UHGV virus genome: UHGV-0130975
Direction: 5' to 3' (one strand)
DNA: 35,599 nt
Origin: a virus
Below, one piece after another: positions 1-7,182 of the stretch. The notes beneath the pieces are model-generated. The model was not told the DNA's origin. It did no database searches and saw nothing but the letters and a program-made list of their open reading frames with translations. Position 1 is the stretch's first letter. Each line of letters begins with the position of its first letter. A program made the position numbers and the translations under genes.

Positions 1-1293
1 AAAGGTGTTTCCTGTAAATATAGTTGAACGGACACCATCAACAACAGCACCGGAAGCTGTCGCATCACGCCCAGATGACACAAAGTTACCAATGATAGAT
101 CCGTACGCAATGCCGTTAAGTAACCATGCGCTACCAGAAACTGCATCAAAAACAGAGTTGGATATAAATACCTGGTATCCAGCAAATTGGTCCAGCGCTG
201 TTGGCGATACCAGAGTAACTTTAGTCTGTACTGCATAATCTCCCGCAAAAAAGGTGCAGAAAGTGATACTAAGGTCTGCTGTATCCCAAACATCTATAGG
301 TGAGTTTGAGCTAAAGCACATCAAAAATTTTGGAGACTCGCTAATGAAATTTACTGTGTTAAGGTCTGATCTGCCTTCAAATCCGCTCGACCAACGTTCA
401 CATCTAAAGAAGTTAACATAGTGATAGTTGTTCATTAAAGTTCTTGAGTTGTAAAAGTACACTCTGTCGAAATCTAAGTTCTGGACATGTCGGCAAACCA
501 TCCAGTTAATTACTGTATCAGATGAAATGATCACATCCCTAAAGATGCCACCCTGTTTCCACTGACTAGCAGCCGGGCCAGACCCTGTAAGGGTAAACAT
601 AGTGAAGGTTGAATCAGAACCTAGATATTTAATCTCTGGATTTTTTGCATTACCTATAATTTCATACCTGGCAGGCAACTCAATATCACGAGTAGCCATG
701 GCATAAACACCAGATCCTCTGAGATAAATTTTCTTAGCACCTGATGCAAACGCCTTCTTAAATGCTAAAGAGTTATCAGTAATACCTCCGTCGTCTTTTC
801 CTCCGAAATCCTCAAGGAACACAAAATCATCAAGCTTATCCTGAACAGTTCTGTATACGGCACCATCAACAACAGATGGTAATCCATACTTATACTTTAC
901 TGTTTCAGGGAATGCCCCGCTTGCAAACTCTCTCTCTAGCTCCTGCCGGAACTGGTCAGGGTCATACTTCAGCACATTAGGAAAATAGAACTGCTGCGCA
1001 CCGTACGTATCATAAACAGCCATCGAATGACCTTGCACAGTTACGAATTTGGCAATCTGTCCGTTATATACTGGGTAACCAGCAGCGTTAATGATGATTG
1101 GTTGCGAAACAGGAACGTGAGAACCGTCTTCGTTCTCTACATAAACCTGAATCTGGTTTTCAGGATTTACCGGGTCAGTGTCAATTTTTCCGATATAAAT
1201 TTTGCCATTGGCAACCGCTTTAAAAGAACGCGCCATAGTGAAGAGTTGCGAAGGCATGCTTACTACAACATTGGCATTTATTGAATCTGTCAT
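1..1293 (-). CDS. Tailspike protein, 5' portion (N-terminal 431 codons; gene continues past the window start)
   Basis: Minus-strand frame opens at ATG 1293-1291 (GGAG about 8 nt upstream) and runs to position 1 with no in-frame stop (checked codon by codon). Translation [60 protein letters not shown]... matches, from memory, the conserved head-binding domain of P22/Sf6/HK620-type tailspikes; sequence after about residue 115 diverges (receptor-binding domain). Missing from the ORF track because no stop lies inside the window. Confidence 0.9.
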
Positions 1294-1425
1294 TTAATTT
1301 GCTCCAGATACAAGGAATCGCCGCAGCATGGCTACGGTTGGTGTTTGTTGCATACCGAAATGGTACGATTGTTGATTTGTACAGTAGGTTTTACGATGCC
1401 ATTCCACCCATTTGGTGAGGCATTG

Positions 1426-1683
1426 ATGATGTACAGCAAATACGATGAGGCGCAGTTCCACTTGAGGCTTACGCACGAGTTGCACGCTAAGATTAAGCAA
1501 CGTGCAAAAATGAATAACAGGTCTATCAATTCCGAAATTGTGGCTACGATGGAAGAATCACTCTCCAAACCATCACCTGTAAGCGGGTATCGTGATGAAG
1601 AAGAGAGGCTGGCCTCATTAATCTCGGAACGAGTAAAAGAAGTTGTGGCTGATATCCTTAGAAAAGAAAAAACCCGCGATTAA
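1426..1683 (+). CDS. mnt: Mnt-like ribbon-helix-helix repressor (85 aa)
   Basis: ATG 1426 with GGTGAGG 7 nt upstream. N-terminal RHH motif (FHLRLTHELHAKIKQRAKMNNRSINSEIV) and C-terminal SKPSPVSGYRDEEERLA segment recalled as P22 Mnt-like. The longer ORF-track start (1345) lacks an RBS. Confidence 0.75.
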   Translation: MMYSKYDEAQFHLRLTHELHAKIKQRAKMNNRSINSEIVATMEESLSKPSPVSGYRDEEERLASLISERVKEVVADILRKEKTRD

Positions 1684-1692
1684 GCGGGTTTA
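1660..1692 (-). terminator. Rho-independent terminator ending the minus-strand antirepressor operon (also a weak terminator for mnt on the plus strand)
   Basis: Hairpin AACCCGC / GCGGGTT (1671-1690) with loop containing the mnt stop codon; on the minus strand it is followed by a U-rich tract (plus-strand A-run 1660-1670). Confidence 0.6.
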
Positions 1693-1697
1693 GTTGG

Positions 1698-1919
1698 TTA
1701 GTTATCAAAAAGTCCGTACGTTTCTTCTTCTTCAGGTGTAAGGGGAAGAATCTCTACTCTATCTATAGATACCTTTTCAATGTACCCATGAGGTCTACTT
1801 AAAATTAAAGCTCTCTCATGCCACAGAACTCCAAGAATGTGATACCTTCCAGCATCGCCTTTTACCCTGGCTCTTCCTTTGATTCTTGGCGGCATAATGC
1901 CATATTTTTTCTTTGCCAT
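1698..1919 (-). CDS. Hypothetical protein (73 aa), last gene of the antirepressor operon
   Basis: ORF-track frame; its ATG overlaps the stop of the upstream antirepressor-like gene (TAATG), suggesting translational coupling. No recognisable motif. Confidence 0.4.
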   Translation of the reverse strand: MAKKKYGIMPPRIKGRARVKGDAGRYHILGVLWHERALILSRPHGYIEKVSIDRVEILPLTPEEEETYGLFDN

Positions 1920-2644
1920 TATGCAACATTACTCCCATGAATCAGGTGTTGTAGTGCTTTAACACCTTCCGCATTGTAGCGGAACGCCTCTACCTGTTTG
2001 CTGGAATGCGCAGATTTATCTAGGAAGAACTTGCCGTACTGCTCAGTTTTGAGGTTGTTTGCGTTAGCAATGCGACCAATCTTGTTGGCCGTTACTCCAA
2101 GCTGCTCTGCAACCTCCCCTGCTGAGTAGTAATGCTCTTCTATTGCTGGAAGAGGTATTGCATTAAAACCAACGATCGGGTTGATTATGCTTGCTGCCGC
2201 AGTCTGCTTTGCCTCAGGCGCAAGATTTGGCATCAGATCGAACAGATTGGTAACAGCTTCAACCGTCATTTTCAATGTTCGCGCTTGACGATACTCAACA
2301 AGTCCACTCGCTGATTTACCGCTTTTAATGTGTGCTTCCTGCATACTTTCAAGTTTGTCTACAAGTGTTCGGCGAACTGCTTTAGATTCGCGAGCAGCAA
2401 CACGAAGCGCCTGCTTGATAGTCATGGAGATAACATCAATGTCAGCCCCGTTTTTCCGACCTACACTTTTTGTGTAGGTCTCGCCCTCCAATTCATCCTC
2501 AATTTTCTCGATGAATTTGTTGTTACGTACTGATGGCTCTCCACATAACTTGCGAGCTTCATTAACCATCATCAGAAGACTTTGGCTGTCAATGGTTTTA
2601 TCCGTGACAACGGATCCGATGTTTGCTACATTCTTAAAAGTCAT
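1919..2644 (-). CDS. Antirepressor-like protein (AntA-type N-terminus, KilA-C/ANT-type C-terminus), about 242 aa
   Basis: Start placed at MTFKNVANIG (ATG 2644-2642) with AAGGA 7 nt upstream. C-terminal segment (AIEEHYYSAGEVAEQLGVTANKIGRIANANNL) resembles the HTH-containing C-terminal domain of phage antirepressors. Family assignment is from memory. Confidence 0.6.
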   Translation of the reverse strand: MTFKNVANIGSVVTDKTIDSQSLLMMVNEARKLCGEPSVRNNKFIEKIEDELEGETYTKSVGRKNGADIDVISMTIKQALRVAARESKAVRRTLVDKLESMQEAHIKSGKSASGLVEYRQARTLKMTVEAVTNLFDLMPNLAPEAKQTAAASIINPIVGFNAIPLPAIEEHYYSAGEVAEQLGVTANKIGRIANANNLKTEQYGKFFLDKSAHSSKQVEAFRYNAEGVKALQHLIHGSNVA

Positions 2645-2732
2645 TAGGCATTCCTTATGTGGTAGTAAGGGTGTGACATAGGCCGCCAGCAGCACACTGG
2701 CGGTTTTCTTTTTGCGCCGTCCGGCGCACCAA

Positions 2733-3359
2733 TCAATGAATCCATTCCTCGCCGCGCAGTTTTGCCAGTATTGGCTGAGCGTTCTTTACGACAAAATTGT
2801 TGGTATCAAGATTCTTCATTTCACGAAGAAGTGATTTCTTGGTTTCTTCTGACATGTAGCGAGTCTCATATGCAATATCGTAAATCCTTCCTGAAAGCTC
2901 AGAACCAATTTGCTTCATTCCTGGGTAGATGTGTTTGCACATTTGTTGACTCTTCTCCATCCACAATTGTAAGTAGCAGAGATTAACCAGTTCTTCGTCA
3001 GTAAACTGTTTTGCAATCGGTGAGCATTCTGCCTGCCGATCCAAAATATCCAGCACCCAGCGGCGGAACTCTTTGGCTACCGGAGTGCGAGCAAACATCG
3101 CGATTAGGTGGGCACCGCGTAGTGAGAAAACTCGCACTTTTTTGCGATAATTTCCTGAGGTACTCACTTCGAGTACCTGAGTCATTCCGGCGCTAAACTC
3201 ATCGCTATACTTGTTATAAATCATTGTTACTGCACGACTATTTGCGTATTTAAGTGCAGATGCAATATTAGATGATGTAAACCAAACACCATGCATATCA
3301 CGGGTGGGCACCAACTCAACTCCGTGGAAGTTGTAATCTGATTTTGCTACAATATTCAT
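2733..3359 (-). CDS. ant: Antirepressor Ant with Bro-N domain (about 208 aa)
   Basis: Start at MNIVAKSDYNFHG (ATG 3359-3357) with AAGGA RBS. N-terminal segment NFHGVELVPTRDMHGVWFTSSNIASALKYAN is a typical Bro-N/AntA motif. Sits directly downstream of arc as in P22 immI. ORF-track start 3443 would overlap arc and lacks an RBS. Confidence 0.7.
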   Translation of the reverse strand: MNIVAKSDYNFHGVELVPTRDMHGVWFTSSNIASALKYANSRAVTMIYNKYSDEFSAGMTQVLEVSTSGNYRKKVRVFSLRGAHLIAMFARTPVAKEFRRWVLDILDRQAECSPIAKQFTDEELVNLCYLQLWMEKSQQMCKHIYPGMKQIGSELSGRIYDIAYETRYMSEETKKSLLREMKNLDTNNFVVKNAQPILAKLRGEEWIH

Positions 3360-3432
3360 GTTAGTTTCCTTGCATACGGTTACTGACATAGAGGCCCAGT
3401 TTGTGTTCGCGCACTGCTGGGCTTCACTATTT

Positions 3433-3606
3433 TTACTGGGCATTAGCTCTTTCCTCTCTCAGGCTTTTAGCCAGTCGCTGCACAATCGCAGAGTTGATAG
3501 AAATTCCATCCATTTCAGCAACACGTCTAATCTCCTCCTTCATTCGCGCTGGCAAACGAAGCTGAAAACTTTGACTTTTACGACCTGTGTAAAGCACATC
3601 TTTCAT
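3433..3606 (-). CDS. arc: Arc-like ribbon-helix-helix repressor (57 aa)
   Basis: Not in the ORF track (under 60 aa). ATG 3606-3604 preceded by a perfect AGGAGG 7 nt upstream. Translation MKDVLYTGRKSQSFQLRLPARMKEEIRRVAEMDGISINSAIVQRLAKSLREERANAQ has the RHH beta-strand/helix pattern (QLRLP...INSAIV) of P22 Arc. Confidence 0.7.
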   Translation of the reverse strand: MKDVLYTGRKSQSFQLRLPARMKEEIRRVAEMDGISINSAIVQRLAKSLREERANAQ

Positions 3607-3618
3607 AAGTAATCCTCC

Positions 3619-3675
3619 TATAATGATACCAACTTGGTTCTAGAACCAATTTAACACCATTTATTTTGATGTCAA
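3619..3675. promoter_or_regulatory. Divergent promoter/operator region between arc-ant (minus) and the 106-aa RHH gene (plus)
   Basis: Perfect 16-bp palindrome TTGGTTCTAGAACCAA at 3634-3649 with a partial repeat AAGTTGGT at 3674-3681. Plus-strand TATAAT at 3619-3624; minus-strand TTGACA (complement of 3670-3675) with a TAAATT/TTAAAT -10 candidate overlapping the palindrome. Confidence 0.55.
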
Positions 3676-3717
3676 GTTGGTGCTATTGTTTAGCGAACAT
3701 CTTTACGTTGAGGTCAT

Positions 3718-4038
3718 ATGAGCAAGTTCCCTAGTCATGAAATGGATAGGTTCAATATCAGGCTTCCTGCAGGAATGCGGGATGCTATAGCTGAACGAGC
3801 CAAACGTAACGGCAGATCAATGAACTCAGAGATTGTTCAGATACTGGAAGATGCCTTGAATGCAGAAAATACACTCGGGGAAATAGCAGATAAAATCAAC
3901 AGCGTCTCGGTTCCGCTAAATGTTGATGCGCTAGTTCAACTTCAAGCCCAGGTTATCGCCATGCAAAAAGAAATACAGGAAAAGTTCAGAGAGCAGAACG
4001 AAAAGTTGAGAGAACTGCTAAACAAAAAACCCACCTGA
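3718..4038 (+). CDS. Ribbon-helix-helix (Arc/Mnt family) repressor with C-terminal coiled coil (106 aa)
   Basis: N-terminal FNIRLPAGMRDAIAERAKRNGRSMNSEIVQILEDAL is a classic Arc/MetJ RHH signature; C-terminus is heptad-like (LVQLQAQVIAMQKEIQEKFREQNEKLRELL). Transcribed divergently from arc-ant, the position P22 mnt occupies. Confidence 0.7.
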   Translation: MSKFPSHEMDRFNIRLPAGMRDAIAERAKRNGRSMNSEIVQILEDALNAENTLGEIADKINSVSVPLNVDALVQLQAQVIAMQKEIQEKFREQNEKLRELLNKKPT

Positions 4039-4063
4039 AGGTGGGTTAATTTTTGCCTTTTTT
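4027..4063 (+). terminator. Rho-independent terminator after the 106-aa RHH gene
   Basis: Hairpin AAAACCCACC-TGAA-GGTGGGTT (4027-4047) followed by AATTTTTGCCTTTTTT. Confidence 0.7.
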
Positions 4064-4136
4064 GGACCATATTGACTACTCATAAAATGAGATCAATATT
4101 TAATCGCCCAATAACGAGTGCATGTTGAGGTATATC

Positions 4137-4316
4137 ATGGCGAAAAAACCAGGTGAAAACACAGGAAAAAACGGCGGAATATACCAAGAAGTTGGCCCGC
4201 GCGGCGGTAAGAAAGACAATTTTGCCACCGTCAAGGACAACGAAAGGCTTCCACCAACAACAAAGCCAGGTCATGGCTGGGTATTAGATAAGCGAACTCC
4301 AGACAGCAAAAAGTAA
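4137..4316 (+). CDS. Small YjzC-like protein (59 aa)
   Basis: ATG 4137 with GAGG 6 nt upstream. MAKKPGENTGKNGGIYQEVGPRGGKKDNFATVKDNERLPPTTKPGHGWVL resembles, from memory, the KPGE...NGG.Y.E.G...G...LPPT...GHxW pattern of the YjzC-like small-protein family. Own terminator immediately downstream. Confidence 0.5.
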   Translation: MAKKPGENTGKNGGIYQEVGPRGGKKDNFATVKDNERLPPTTKPGHGWVLDKRTPDSKK

Positions 4317-4321
4317 TAATC

Positions 4322-4346
4322 AAGCCGGGTCACTCCGGCTTTTTGA
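4322..4346 (+). terminator. Rho-independent terminator after the YjzC-like gene
   Basis: AGCCGG-GTCACT-CCGGCT hairpin followed by TTTTT (4341-4345). Confidence 0.6.
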
Positions 4347-4695
4347 TATGTCGCTCGCAGAACTCAACAAGCCTGCTCATTAAGTAGCAGTAAGTCTCGT
4401 TGGCTCTTCCTGGTTCAACATCAACACCGACCCTTGAGCAGATATCGAATGCCATGTGAGCGCACTCATGGGCAATAGTAGATAGTTTGCCATTGAACAC
4501 GCCTATCACATGCAAAACACCATTCTCGCTGCTCATTGTATGAGACGCTCCGTTGGCATCCGAGTCCTGCACGTCCACACCAAGTTTTTGATGCAGGCGT
4601 TGCCATTCTGGAAAGTCTCTACAAAACACAATTGTACCGCTCTCAAAGAGCGGAACGAGCATTTTTGGTACGTTTCCAATGTTAACTTTTTTCAT
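4330..4695 (-). CDS. HExxH-motif protein (121 aa), possible small zincin-like metallopeptidase-fold protein
   Basis: ORF-track frame. Contains AHECAHMAF, i.e. an HExxH motif in a predicted helix, with a downstream acidic residue (VEPGRANETY) that could serve as a third ligand. Co-directional with the late operon, in the position where P22 carries sieA. Confidence 0.55.
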   Translation of the reverse strand: MKKVNIGNVPKMLVPLFESGTIVFCRDFPEWQRLHQKLGVDVQDSDANGASHTMSSENGVLHVIGVFNGKLSTIAHECAHMAFDICSRVGVDVEPGRANETYCYLMSRLVEFCERHIKKPE

Positions 4696-4725
4696 GGTAT
4701 CCTGCGCAAAACTAAGGAGGTTGGT

Positions 4726-5055
4726 GTGCTTGAATGGTTTCTGTTGGCTGCATTAGTCGTTTCTAGTTTGGTGTATGAGTATCGAATGCACTCTCTAACA
4801 AAAAAAATAGGAATTCTAGAAAACGAATATTGTGCTCTCAAATCCTCACTGGAACGTGAGCAAGGAGACTTAAAAATCTCTCTGTCTAGCATTGAGCGTT
4901 CTATAGAGAGCCTAGAGGATAAGGTTGATCGTATAAAGAATGAGGATATTCATGATATTAAGGACGACATATCCTTCTTAAAATCTTGGTTGAAAAATGT
5001 TGGTAAAATTGCCACATCAACACGAGATAAGCTCAATCCATCCATGGATGACTAA
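4726..5055 (+). CDS. Small membrane-anchored coiled-coil protein (110 aa, GTG start), low-GC moron
   Basis: GTG 4726 preceded by AAGGAGG 5 nt upstream. N-terminal hydrophobic helix (LEWFLLAALVVSSLVY) followed by a heptad-rich charged region (ILENEYCALKSSLEREQGDLKISLSSIERSIESLEDKVDRIKNEDIHDI). The ORF-track upstream extension is noncoding-looking. Visibly AT-richer than the flanking late genes; stop abuts the gp16 stop (convergent). Confidence 0.55.
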   Translation: MLEWFLLAALVVSSLVYEYRMHSLTKKIGILENEYCALKSSLEREQGDLKISLSSIERSIESLEDKVDRIKNEDIHDIKDDISFLKSWLKNVGKIATSTRDKLNPSMDD

Positions 5056-7182
5056 TTACTCCTGTGCCATTCCGCTAAGCGATGCCACAATTCCAGCCCT
5101 TGCTAAACGCTGGAACTCTTCGTTTCCTAGTGCCTCGCGTATTGCTTTTACGGCGGCCTTATTTGCCATAAATCTGCGTTCCGCCGCCGCTAATGCTTCT
5201 TTGCTTCCGCCTGCTCTTACTGCTTTAGTTGCTTCCTGAACTGCTTTCTCTATCGCATACCGACCACTACGTGTGGTGGCAATTTTAGATACAGCGCCTT
5301 TTAACCCAGCGCCAACTAAAGCACCTGCGGCAGCGCCTGCAATGCCTCCTCCAGCGCCACCAACAATGGCACCTGATGTTGAATTGGCAATTGCATTTAA
5401 CACTGTTGATGTGACGTTGGATAAACCAGCATCCAGATCGCGTAGTACATTGGCAGTTCTACCTGTTCTTTCAATATACTGCTGAGGTTTCACTGCTGCT
5501 CTTGCAAGAGTGCCATATGCATCAGCAATTCTTCCAAGCTCTGAGGAATATCGGCTAATGGCTTTTACATTTTGTGGAGTCAGTATCTCTGCGATATGGT
5601 TAATTCCTGCTGCATCAGCTTTGCCACCACGTACACCATGCGAGATAGCATCTTGCAACATTGATGAAATAGCAGGAACACGCTCTGATTCTGGCAGCGC
5701 GCGGATCATAGAATGGAATCCAGCAGGACCATTAAGACCTTTAGCTGACGATGATTGAAGGGATTTTACTCCATTCGTAATCAGTGCATCTGTTGCCAAA
5801 TCACGCCCGAAAACAGACTCTGCACTCTCTTGTGCTGATAACCTCGCTTTAGACAGATCATTAGCTTTCTGCCAGTCATCAAGAAATCCGCCGTTTTCCG
5901 CCATTGTGCGCATATCATCAGTAATTGCCCGGCGTATTTCCCCTGCTCTCCTTGCCGCATTTGCCTCTCCGCTACGCTTATATTTTTGCTCCGCATCAGC
6001 AAATTTCGCTCTCCATGCTTTCATGCCATCAAATGTTACTCCACCTTGATTGTTTGCCTGAACAAACTGTTTCATTTCAGGAGTAAGCGGTATGCCAGCA
6101 GATCGCTCTGCCTGAATAACGGCATTACCATTTAGCATTCTTGCTTTTTGATTTGGCATTGTTGACCGCACGTCATCCCATGCCGCGCGCTCGGCATCCT
6201 TCATCTGATCAAGATTTTGAAGAATCCTTTGTTTTATAGCCGCACTTTTTTCTGATGCCGTTCCAGATGTGGCCCCAAATTCATCAAGGTTTCGACTTAA
6301 CTTTGATGATATTTCGTTAAATGCTGCCTGATGGGCGTCCTGAACAATTCCAGGTGTTGATGCCAATGCGCCTTCGGCTTGTGCAATTCCACGACTTCCA
6401 GATCGCATTCCTGGTGTTAATGCGTTTATATCAATTCCAGCAGACTCAGCCGCTTTTGCTACATCTTCGGACACATTAGCGGCCTGACTGGCAATTGACT
6501 GACGCCCAGCACCTGACTTTGCCATCCTAGAAACATCATTAGCAGAATTCAGTGCTGCACCACCAAGAGCCTGTGAAACCCTTGGCGCAATAACGCGCCC
6601 GACACCTGAAAGAACGCCTTGAGCACCAATATTGATACCACCGTTAATGGCAGCATTTTGTGCAAAATCACCCTCCTGATTTGCAGCATCAGCAAGAGAA
6701 CCTGCAATCATGTTTCCTGCGGAACCGATGTCTCCTGCGAGCTTTGCTGGCGCTCCAGCAACTTTTGCCGCTGTGCCAATTGGCAGGAGATACCCACCAA
6801 TTGTTTCACCGGCTTGCGCCCAAGGGTCTGTCGGTCGATCGACAGGGCGATAAACATCATCCAAAACCTTGGGGCCACCAAGCCCCTGGCTGATTGCATT
6901 AATCAGACTTGCGCCACCCTGCAATACGTCAAATGGTATGTTTACCAGACCACGACCAGCCTGTTCTGCAATTTGCCCTGCACTTTGACCACCAGTGAGC
7001 CAATCGCCAGCTTGTTGCATCAATGATGGTTCTTCCCGTGTTGGTGCATTATTGTCCTGATTAACTGTTTGTTGCTGAACAGCCTGACCAGCAAAATACT
7101 CATCAATGGCGGTGCCAATATCTTCCGTGCTCGTACCATCAGGGAAGGTAAATGTCTTACCGTTTGCAGTTACTTTCATCAT
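5056..7182 (-). CDS. DNA ejection (injection) protein, P22 gp16-like (708 aa)
   Basis: Last gene of the late operon in the P22 order 7-20-16; Gly/Ala-rich with a C-terminal [17 protein letters not shown] hydrophobic segment typical of ejection proteins. Confidence 0.8.

Follow-up and report, generated by a model that had tools for sequence, protein, structure and literature searches.

The interval between genes 16 and 9 of UHGV-0130975, a P22-like (Lederbergvirus) virus genome by its open reading frame (ORF) content and DNA matches, probably holds a real but mosaic immI region of the P22 type, in which two control units have been joined by mosaic recombination. The window, meaning the whole stretch of 35,599 nucleotides that was analyzed, carries its late operon on the minus strand, and the interval is bounded there by a gene 16-like ORF (5056-7182, minus strand) and the tailspike gene (1-1293, minus strand). 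The larger portion, Unit A (about 1698-4047), is read with fair confidence as a full repressor, antisense RNA and antirepressor cassette built like P22 immI, while Unit B (1351-1691) would seem to be a separate Mnt orthologue with its own homologues of O_mnt and P_mnt.

P22 immI is a textbook circuit, its Arc and Mnt proteins are model ribbon-helix-helix (RHH) proteins, and its sar transcript was an early paradigm of antisense RNA. The gene 16-gene 9 interval of P22 is immI (mnt, arc, sar and ant), part of a fast-changing "ant moron" of which ten types occur in sixteen genomes (Villafane et al., PMC2629481). That the window carries the immI region of a P22-like phage had been proposed in a first-pass annotation, and it is borne out by the slot between genes 16 and 9 and by DNA homology to P22, HK620 and ST160 on both flanks, with the gene 9 leader on one side and the mnt terminator and orf59a on the other; from position 4022 on, DNA identity to P22, ST160 and SE1 is 97-98%. 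The comparison set comprised about 190 related loci overall, referred to by L numbers where needed (e.g. L004, P22; L005, Escherichia coli ACN001; L009, ST160). Relatives of the 106-amino acid (aa) and Arc-like proteins were collected from 13 genome loci and 80 IMG/VR loci, and the Mnt-like gene was compared across 80 IMG/VR loci. The features of Unit A are as follows.

4028-4047, both strands: bidirectional terminator shared with P22 t_mnt
3718-4038, plus strand: 106-aa RHH repressor in the position of P22 mnt
3648-3675, minus strand: leftward Pant-like promoter, TTGACA-16-TAAATT with TG
3641-3670, plus strand: predicted weak promoter of the 106-aa gene
3624-3685: predicted operator array of the 106-aa protein
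3433-3606, minus strand: 57-aa Arc-like repressor that heads the leftward operon
3348-3435, plus strand: homologue of the sar antisense RNA
2733-3359, minus strand: antirepressor candidate, 208 aa, Bro-N plus P22AR_C
2604-2716, plus strand: candidate second sar-like antisense RNA
1919-2644, minus strand: 241-aa protein with a possible KilA/antirepressor fold
1698-1919, minus strand: 73-aa ORF (p73)
1670-1691, both strands: hairpin terminator at which the minus-strand operon and the Mnt-like gene both end

The leftward operon and its predicted antisense RNAs

An Arc-family small repressor heads the operon (E=8e-12 to Pfam Arc; 43 aa aligned with P22 Arc at 42% identity; 172 relatives in IMG/VR), and the first-pass annotation was right to place it at 3433-3606 despite its absence from the ORF list. 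An alignment with the P22 sar region spans the gap behind it and reaches into the first Bro-N codons; it takes in the -10 element (TACAAT at 3348-3353 vs TATACT in P22), the sequence complementary to the start codon, and the terminator (stem about 3391-3426). The predicted RNA (about 3360-3435) runs across the ant ribosome-binding site and ends at a terminator in the arc-ant gap that acts in the antisense direction only. As a 73-nt plus-strand RNA it is predicted to fold into the two hairpins of P22 sar (-31.8 kcal/mol, z=-5.7), with a compensatory stem change from CCCAG/CTGGG to CCCGG/CCGGG in JEP4 and 55989. Rfam searches, at gathering cut-offs and at E<=10, returned neither sar nor any other meaningful match, only terminator-like noise, and the assignment is therefore established by direct alignment to P22.

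The gene that follows encodes the Bro-N protein, an antirepressor candidate already recognized at first pass. Both of its domains score above Pfam gathering (Bro-N, PF02498, E=2e-10, 41.4 bits vs a cut-off of 25.6; P22AR_C, PF10548, E=4e-14, 53 bits vs 22.4), and the protein matches phrog_245, "anti-repressor Ant", at E=1e-53. Its C-terminal domain is 29% identical to that of P22 Ant over 69 aa (E=1e-9), P22AR_C being the only shared part. The likely start has been corrected to the ATG at 3359, behind the Shine-Dalgarno sequence AAGGAAAC. The listed 236-aa ORF (2733-3443, minus strand) overlaps the Arc-like stop codon and runs open across the sar terminator, and its N-terminal extension MPSKNSEAQQCANTN recurs in relatives only through reading across that conserved terminator. 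The candidate target of the Bro-N protein is the window's CI-type repressor (helix-turn-helix plus S24, about 29.9-30.6 kb), which lies with cro and cII in a lambda-type immC region near 29-30.6 kb.

Next comes a 241-aa protein composed of an N-terminal alpha/beta domain, long helices and a C-terminal MerR-like winged helix; its likely start is the ATG at 2644, with a good Shine-Dalgarno sequence, and not the GTG at 2695 (258 aa). The first-pass annotation had called it a second antirepressor-like gene. The gene is indeed there, but the designation "antirepressor" goes no further than fold and PHROG name: the protein has no Pfam or NCBIfam match at E<=0.01, including PF03374 KilAC, and no similarity to P22 Ant, its match to phrog_130 is weak (E=5e-4), and its best viral structural matches in BFVD are named antirepressor, KilA or KilAC. 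The family is large and nearly all of its listed members are "hypothetical". Across IMG/VR the gene follows both Bro-N-type and P22-type Ant genes, even at 40-66% identity, which indicates a regular partner of Ant and not a chance neighbour.

The start of the 241-aa gene probably has an antisense RNA of its own, which, like sar, was missing from the first-pass inventory of immI parts. The promoter and terminator scan placed a promoter just inside the gene (GTGACA-17-TACATT with TG, 2604-2632) and a terminator in the intergenic gap (2680-2706), and the predicted RNA (about 2639-2716) spans the start codon and Shine-Dalgarno sequence. Among 27 unique relatives the motif TGCTAnAnT is kept despite changes in the encoded residues (FKNVA, SLNLA, EVTLA, KMNIA), TTGACT-16-GATAAT stands at the same site where the N-terminus is unrelated, and an antisense-oriented hairpin with a T-run is present in all 27 variants. 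Stem changes keep pairing (GCCGCCAG/CTGGCGG, GCCGGTAG/CTACCGGC, GCCAGCAG/CTGCTGGC).

The last gene, p73, was also listed at first pass and is present as described (1698-1919, minus strand); its ATG overlaps the upstream stop (TAATG), and its translation is probably coupled to that of the 241-aa gene. Pfam and NCBIfam gave no match for p73, which has no confident fold, is confined to 8 protein clusters and is optional in relatives. A single minus-strand operon, as first suggested, is plausible, since the scan found no strong sense-strand terminator between 3606 and 1698, and the strong terminator claimed for its end is the hairpin at 1670-1691 (AAACCCGC..GCGGGTTT, then TTTCTTTTCT), with a T-run on the minus strand and the stop codon of the convergent Mnt-like gene in its loop.

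Whether this operon encodes antirepressors at all has to be weighed. Bro-N and the MerR-like winged helix are DNA-binding folds, the 241-aa family is without a characterized member, and PHROGs and BFVD give the name "anti-repressor" as an annotation and not as the outcome of a test; the products could instead be DNA-binding regulators or host-takeover or anti-defence factors placed under immI-style control. We regard this as unlikely, given that the Bro-N protein shares P22AR_C with the proven P22 antirepressor, that its gene is placed behind Arc and sar exactly like P22 ant, and that the same slot holds a P22-type Ant in relatives.

The Mnt orthologue beside the tailspike gene

Between the operon end and the tailspike gene, the first-pass annotation had noted an 85-aa protein with a Mnt-like C-terminus, and here the likeness extends over the full length. 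The protein (Pfam Arc, E=1e-14; beta-strand AQFHLRL) is 43% identical to P22 Mnt throughout, with the linker, the C-terminal helix and SKPSPV.GYR..ERLA included (SKPSPVSGYRDEEERLA vs SKPSPVTGYRNDAERLA). Its surroundings are laid out as follows.

1-1293, minus strand: gene 9 (tailspike) homologue, 5' portion encoding the head-binding domain; initiation codon 1293-1291
1294-1338, minus strand: gene 9 leader, 45 nt, conserved with P22
1351-1367: operator-like element of 17 bp, CATACCGA-A-ATGGTACG, homologous in position to P22 O_mnt
1369-1397, plus strand: predicted Mnt-like promoter TTGTTG-17-TACGAT, homologue of P_mnt
1405-1417, plus strand: small 5'-terminal hairpin of the Mnt-like mRNA, CACC-N5-GGTG
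1426-1683, plus strand: 85-aa Mnt orthologue, an RHH domain followed by a C-terminal helix of the Mnt type

The operator-like element lies directly before the -35 and aligns column for column with ST160 (AAGACCAC-G-GTGGTCTT) and with P22 O_mnt (AGGTCCAC-C-GTGGACCT). It is symmetric at 5/8 positions in the window and at 6/6 in the outer arms of L162. The core TACC-N5-GGTA (1353-1365) is kept in nearly all QFHLR-type upstream regions of the 80 IMG/VR loci and is degenerate in L150, and the operator sequence changes with the beta-strand type of the protein (QFHLR, QFNLR, HFNFR). In the same alignment of window, ST160 and P22, the -35 reads TTGTTG, TTGTGG and TTGAGA and the -10 reads TACGAT, TATGAT and TATCAT, so that the predicted promoter matches P22 TTGAGA-17-TATCAT in spacing (17 nt) and position. 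The hairpin just before or overlapping the Shine-Dalgarno sequence varies in a compensatory way among relatives: CACC..GGTG in the window, CACTT..AAGTG in ST160, CACT..AGTG in P22 and CCAGT..ACTGG in L156.

A functional Pant and an arc-ant operon facing the Mnt-like gene are not what was found. What is left of the opposing Pant lacks an acceptable -35 (ATGGCA, 15-16 nt spacer) and was not picked up by the scan, and the scan of 1294-1425 likewise returned no tailspike-directed promoter, the degenerate Pant remnant being all that is present there. A possible relic of O_arc (CAGTAGG) in the spacer of the Mnt-like promoter was rejected, as the alignment puts it out of register with P22. Among the 80 IMG/VR loci the Mnt-like gene adjoins the tailspike gene, divergently, in 77; the other three have no tailspike match, and two of these are cut just upstream. 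In 26 of the 80, no counterpart of any ant-operon gene of the window was detected downstream of the Mnt-like gene.

These observations bear on the earlier claim that the three RHH genes are repressors of one operon, in which case all three proteins would act on the leftward promoter and the Mnt-like protein would be a second maintenance repressor of Unit A. The Mnt-like core does resemble TACC-AACTT-GGTT at 3627-3639, formed by half-sites A and B of the array described below, and in L054 and L064 this site reads GTACC-N5-GGTAC or ATACC-N5-GGTAC and matches the Mnt-like consensus; moreover, three of the eight ACC-N5-GGT sites in the window sit in the two immI intergenic regions. All three were considered as Mnt-like operators and this was rejected as the main reading, because the second co-varies like an RNA hairpin while the protein stays constant, and is better read as the hairpin of the 5' untranslated region, and the third is built from the half-sites of the 106-aa protein itself. 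In the 26 loci mentioned the Mnt-like gene occurs without a detected ant-operon gene, and in the 77 it sits beside the tailspike gene with its own operator and promoter. Further, JEP4 keeps the Mnt-like gene but has a different leftward control region without the motif, and AHB3 has an intergenic region identical to the window's across the aligned stretch, yet lacks the Mnt-like gene. Joint control of the leftward promoter by all three proteins is thus rather improbable, and the claim of three repressors for one operon is not supported.

Still less probable is that the 85-aa gene is a decaying remnant of an older immI, with no present function. Unit B lacks arc-ant, its opposing Pant no longer has a -35, and for the mnt-only arrangement of phage L the choice between "another function or a remnant" was left open (PMC8022706). 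On the other side, each of the 80 loci has a match that covers at least 73 of the 85 residues, at 66-100% identity, a conservation that argues for function; conserved operator, -35, -10 and Shine-Dalgarno sequences accompany the gene, and operator and beta-strand co-vary among the P22, ST160 and window types, which is not expected of a dead gene. Unit B is accordingly best regarded as a separate Mnt orthologue, and its role is likely to be autoregulated expression from the prophage.

The divergent repressor and its probable half-site array

The 106-aa protein (Pfam Arc, E=1.6e-20; phrog_1287; beta-strand DRFNIRLP) was correctly described at first pass as an Arc/Mnt-family protein divergent from arc. 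The alignment with P22 Arc and Mnt that had been suggested then was run, and it sorts the three RHH proteins: the 57-aa protein is Arc-like and the 85-aa protein matches Mnt over its full length, but the 106-aa protein is Mnt-like at residues 12-48 only (54% identity by BLASTP), its C-terminal 58 residues being unrelated to Mnt. Since only the RHH domain aligns, the protein is best read as a positional and functional analogue of Mnt and not its orthologue. The heptad-like, helical C-terminal tail probably makes it oligomeric.

Between this gene and arc, the Pant-like promoter is the best promoter match in 1100-4500 (10/12 in the consensus scan), its -35 (ATGTCAA) is kept in all relatives, and its position relative to arc is that of Pant in P22. 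The rightward promoter is assigned by positional homology to P22: a -10, TTTGAT (3665-3670), stands directly before GTCAA, as TATCAT does in P22 P_mnt (TATCAT-GTCAA), with AACAAT, GATAAT, TATCAT or TACCAT in relatives, and a poor -35 lies inside a palindrome. This palindrome, TTGGTTCTAGAACCAA, is exact at 3634-3649, as the first-pass annotation had stated, and is the sole perfect palindrome of at least 14 bp in the window; it is not, as stated there, exactly between the divergent promoters, for it overlaps the leftward -10/+1 and the predicted rightward -35. About 0.7 perfect 16-mer palindromes are expected by chance per 35.6 kb, against P of about 0.003 inside the 111-bp intergenic stretch, and it is only this location in a divergent control region that makes the palindrome unlikely. 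Nor is it a stand-alone site. It belongs to an array of five copies of a 9-bp half-site (consensus T[TA]GGTNCTA) that extends from +15 of the leftward promoter to beyond its -35, with B and C overlapping the -10/+1.

Half-site A, 3624-3632, reverse
Half-site B, 3634-3642, forward; with C it forms the palindrome, tail to tail
Half-site C, 3641-3649, reverse
Half-site E, 3652-3660, reverse; 7/9 match to the consensus
Half-site D, 3677-3685, forward

In relatives the palindrome reads TTGGTnCTAnAACCAA and is often imperfect, and A with B reproduces the layout of P22 O_mnt, in which the arms flank a single central base.

The array is very probably the operator of the 106-aa protein and not of the Arc-like protein, because the half-sites follow the beta-strand of the long RHH protein and are unchanged when the Arc-like type changes. 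For the RFN and RFT types, co-variation was assessed over 43 unique intergenic regions from IMG/VR, and further strand types bring other repeats.

RFN[IV]R strand: TGGT.CTA in 28 of 29 unique intergenic regions, and in 1 of 14 RFT[IV]R regions
RFT[IV]R strand: TGATGCTA in 14 of 14 regions, and in 0 of 29 RFN regions
KFM[LV]RFP strand: GTCAC-N-GTGAC in three distant sources (Pectobacterium, Duganella and one IMG/VR contig)
VFNLRMP strand: CCCCAC-N-GTGGGG in L012, L055 and L086
KFNLRFP strand: different repeats in an O157:H7 prophage (L184), whose protein is identical to the window's from about residue 19

In L184 the strand region DKFNLRFPDG goes with another N-arm and other operator repeats. 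All RFN and RFT regions share the SFQLR type of Arc-like protein except one (L066, AFNLR). In ACN001 the Arc-like protein is 96% identical to the window's, the long RHH protein has ERFTVRMP, and GACATCAccaTGATGTC stands at the palindrome position; conversely, the Arc-like type is swapped with the intergenic region unchanged in L066 vs L054 and in L088 vs L014.

That the palindrome is instead the operator of the Arc-like protein, the adjacent first gene of the operon, in the manner of P22 Arc, which Vershon, Sauer and colleagues reportedly found to bind a symmetric site in Pant, is highly improbable, for palindrome and half-sites are missing where the same Arc-like strand meets a different long RHH protein, the half-sites are kept where a different Arc-like type meets the same long RHH protein, and the Pant -10/+1 is the position of O_mnt in P22, not of O_arc. 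A separate candidate for the Arc-like operator, ACACCATT, was rejected as well; it is better explained by half-site E and the extended -10, and it is absent from L088.

The terminator behind the 106-aa gene has its stem in the last codons, KKPT*, and many otherwise unlike long RHH proteins (L012, L013, L016, L020), as well as ST160 Mnt (L009), end in the same residues, P22 Mnt ending in KKTT. In these genes, as at 4022-4047 of the window, the last codons lie in the stem of the common terminator AAAAAACCCACCTGAAGGTGGGTT, which looks like a joint of mosaic recombination. A second such joint, GGCTACGGT, ends the gene 9 leader, which is near-identical to P22 (L004, 1833-1877).

Proposed circuit, relatives and significance

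Taken together, Units A and B suggest the following circuit. In the lysogen the 106-aa repressor would occupy the half-site array and silence the strong leftward promoter, and its binding over its own weak promoter would probably limit its own synthesis. Upon infection the leftward promoter would fire briefly and the Arc-like protein, once made, would shut it again, by analogy with P22; the Bro-N/P22AR_C antirepressor would be made next and, by the same analogy, would inactivate a CI/C2-type repressor, with the 241-aa protein, perhaps of KilA fold, and p73 following it in the operon. The two antisense RNAs are predicted to start inside the 5' ends of the two large genes, to end at antisense-only terminators and to cover the ribosome-binding sites, so that read-through of the late operon toward the tailspike gene would yield no Bro-N or 241-aa protein. 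The Mnt orthologue would form an independent autoregulated unit, whose opposing Pant has decayed and whose arc-ant is missing.

Several points weigh against this reading. The most general is that binding, expression and antirepressor activity are deduced from sequence throughout. For the Arc-like operator the analogy with P22 has a real gap, as nothing in the 52 unique intergenic regions compared varies with the beta-strand type of the Arc-like protein. The unique intergenic sequences are related by descent, and the co-variation counts mostly reflect a few lineages and not independent events. Both rightward promoters, that of the 106-aa gene and that of the Mnt-like gene, are weak by consensus and fall below the scan threshold. 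Concerning the second antisense RNA, its fold is not exceptional (z=-1.84 for the window copy) and its -35 lies inside conserved codons. The winged helix of the 241-aa protein is of a DNA-binding type, and the protein may not be an antirepressor at all. Finally, given the resemblance between the Mnt-like operator core and half-sites A and B, the two units may not be independent.

The layout is a variant of a known switch and not a new kind of system, and it is not unique to the window. Among 5,426 complete E. coli genomes, 19 (about 0.35%) carry it in full, by the criterion of at least 80% cover of the 1400-4050 query; E. coli 55989 and others have the same three-Arc-gene layout at 95-98% identity, already labelled "Arc family DNA-binding protein" three times over by PGAP. 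Our literature search found no description of it. Partial versions also occur. AHB3 is without the 73-aa and 85-aa genes, E. coli ACN001 has a different divergent RHH gene, and phage JEP4 places a CI-like repressor and a small, unrelated RHH gene ahead of the same block of Bro-N, 241-aa, 73-aa and Mnt-like genes. Sf101, ST160 and VSe13 have a Mnt-type gene beside the tailspike gene and no functional ant operon.

Compared with P22 immI, the window shares the slot and its homologous flanks, an Arc-type first gene, a homologous sar of the same fold, an Ant with P22AR_C, a divergent RHH maintenance repressor whose operator (here predicted) lies over the Pant start, predicted back-to-back overlapping promoters, and presumed late read-through to the tailspike gene. 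It differs in that its divergent repressor has only the RHH domain in common with Mnt, with another C-terminal tail and five half-sites in place of one 17-bp operator; in that its Ant has Bro-N and not the P22 N-terminal domain; in the added 241-aa and 73-aa genes and the probable second antisense RNA; and in that its true Mnt orthologue lies elsewhere, beside the tailspike gene. Unit B is in turn like the mnt-only ant morons of L, ST64T, ST104, ST160, SE1, Sf101 and IME10 (Villafane et al. 2008, PMC2629481; PMC8022706), which have mnt divergent from the tailspike gene, an O_mnt-type palindrome directly before the P_mnt -35 and no arc-ant between. Unlike these, the window has a complete second immI cassette downstream of mnt and convergent with it, and its QFHLR strand and TACC-N5-GGTA operator represent another specificity type. 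The lambdoid prophages of O157:H7, O26 and O111 share the divergent RHH and Arc-Ant layout, with a long RHH protein in SS52 that is identical from about residue 19, but they have the KFNLRFP strand with another N-arm and other repeats, a P22-type Ant without the 241-aa gene, and a location in a lambda-like tail cluster. A multi-gene antirepressor operon held down by antisense RNA is also the plan of immI in P1 and P7, with unrelated sequences, no known RHH repressors and a c4 RNA processed from the same transcript. Heinrich, Velleman and Schuster are reported to have described this system in 1995 as c4 antisense RNA, icd and ant1/ant2, with c4 cut from the transcript on whose upstream sites it acts.

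Some observations on the relatives and flanks stand apart from this comparison. In E. coli O157:H7 SS52 (L184, NZ_CP010304.1 2,633,251-2,638,532; cassette at locus positions 1180-3519) the divergent RHH and P22-type Arc-Ant cassette lies inside a lambda-like tail gene cluster and adjoins a "minor tail protein L" annotated as two pseudogene pieces; about 300 genomes of Shiga toxin-producing E. coli match the cassette part at 95.7%. In Klebsiella phage phiKp_30 (L008) 50-bp direct repeats GTGACTGCTCCCCGCCCTGTCGGGCGAGGGTTTACGGCGTATCTTGCTAA (2456-2505 and 3565-3614) bracket a fragment made up of the Mnt-like gene's 3' half, the 241-aa gene and the region like the second antisense RNA, with the Mnt N-terminus replaced, which looks like a recent insertion or duplication. 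Divergent RHH and Arc-Ant cassettes of enterobacterial type are also found in assemblies labelled as Bacteroidota or Betaproteobacteria (L011 and L013, from an assembly labelled Chryseobacterium sp. 18061; L018, Duganella aquatilis); L011 is very close to enterobacterial versions and may reflect contamination or mislabelling, and L018 is more diverged. In ACN001 (5783-6034) PGAP calls the divergent Arc-family gene a pseudogene without its C-terminus, probably an annotation artefact, as the ORF of about 84 aa is intact with another C-terminal domain. The 5' DNA of the window's tailspike gene, which PGAP names "phage head-binding domain-containing protein", resembles the tailspike N-termini of HK620, Sf101 and E. 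coli prophages. The rest of the ant moron holds homologues of P22 orf59a (phrog_3202) and hkcC (phrog_1365) among ORFs at 4137-4316 (plus), 4330-4695 (minus) and about 4510-5055 (plus), with a 181-aa plus-strand ORF at the position of HK620 hkcB and no sieA homologue seen.

A broader proposal, which we put forward only tentatively, is that the Mnt orthologue is a selected, self-contained "orphan" module and not a relic, that each large gene has its sar-type RNA, and that RHH specificity comes in exchangeable blocks, all three together. N-arm, beta-strand and operator array may be swapped as one block between otherwise identical scaffolds, one instance being a beta-strand change from Asn to Thr that is paired with G to A in every half-site. 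An orphan Mnt may, together with the 106-aa repressor, give the prophage two stacked immI specificities, in which case it would silence the antirepressor promoters of two classes of superinfecting phage and avoid induction in trans; alternatively, the bound tetramer may gate late transcription into the tailspike gene.

The natural diversity of immI has so far only been sketched. The matched swaps of beta-strand and operator on a near-constant scaffold provide a natural series for the RHH-DNA recognition code and for heteroimmunity, the probable second sar-like RNA, guarding a widespread and uncharacterized Ant partner, is a new antisense RNA candidate, and the locus makes it testable why many P22-like phages keep mnt without ant. 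The known logic of antirepressor control is thereby extended, not changed.

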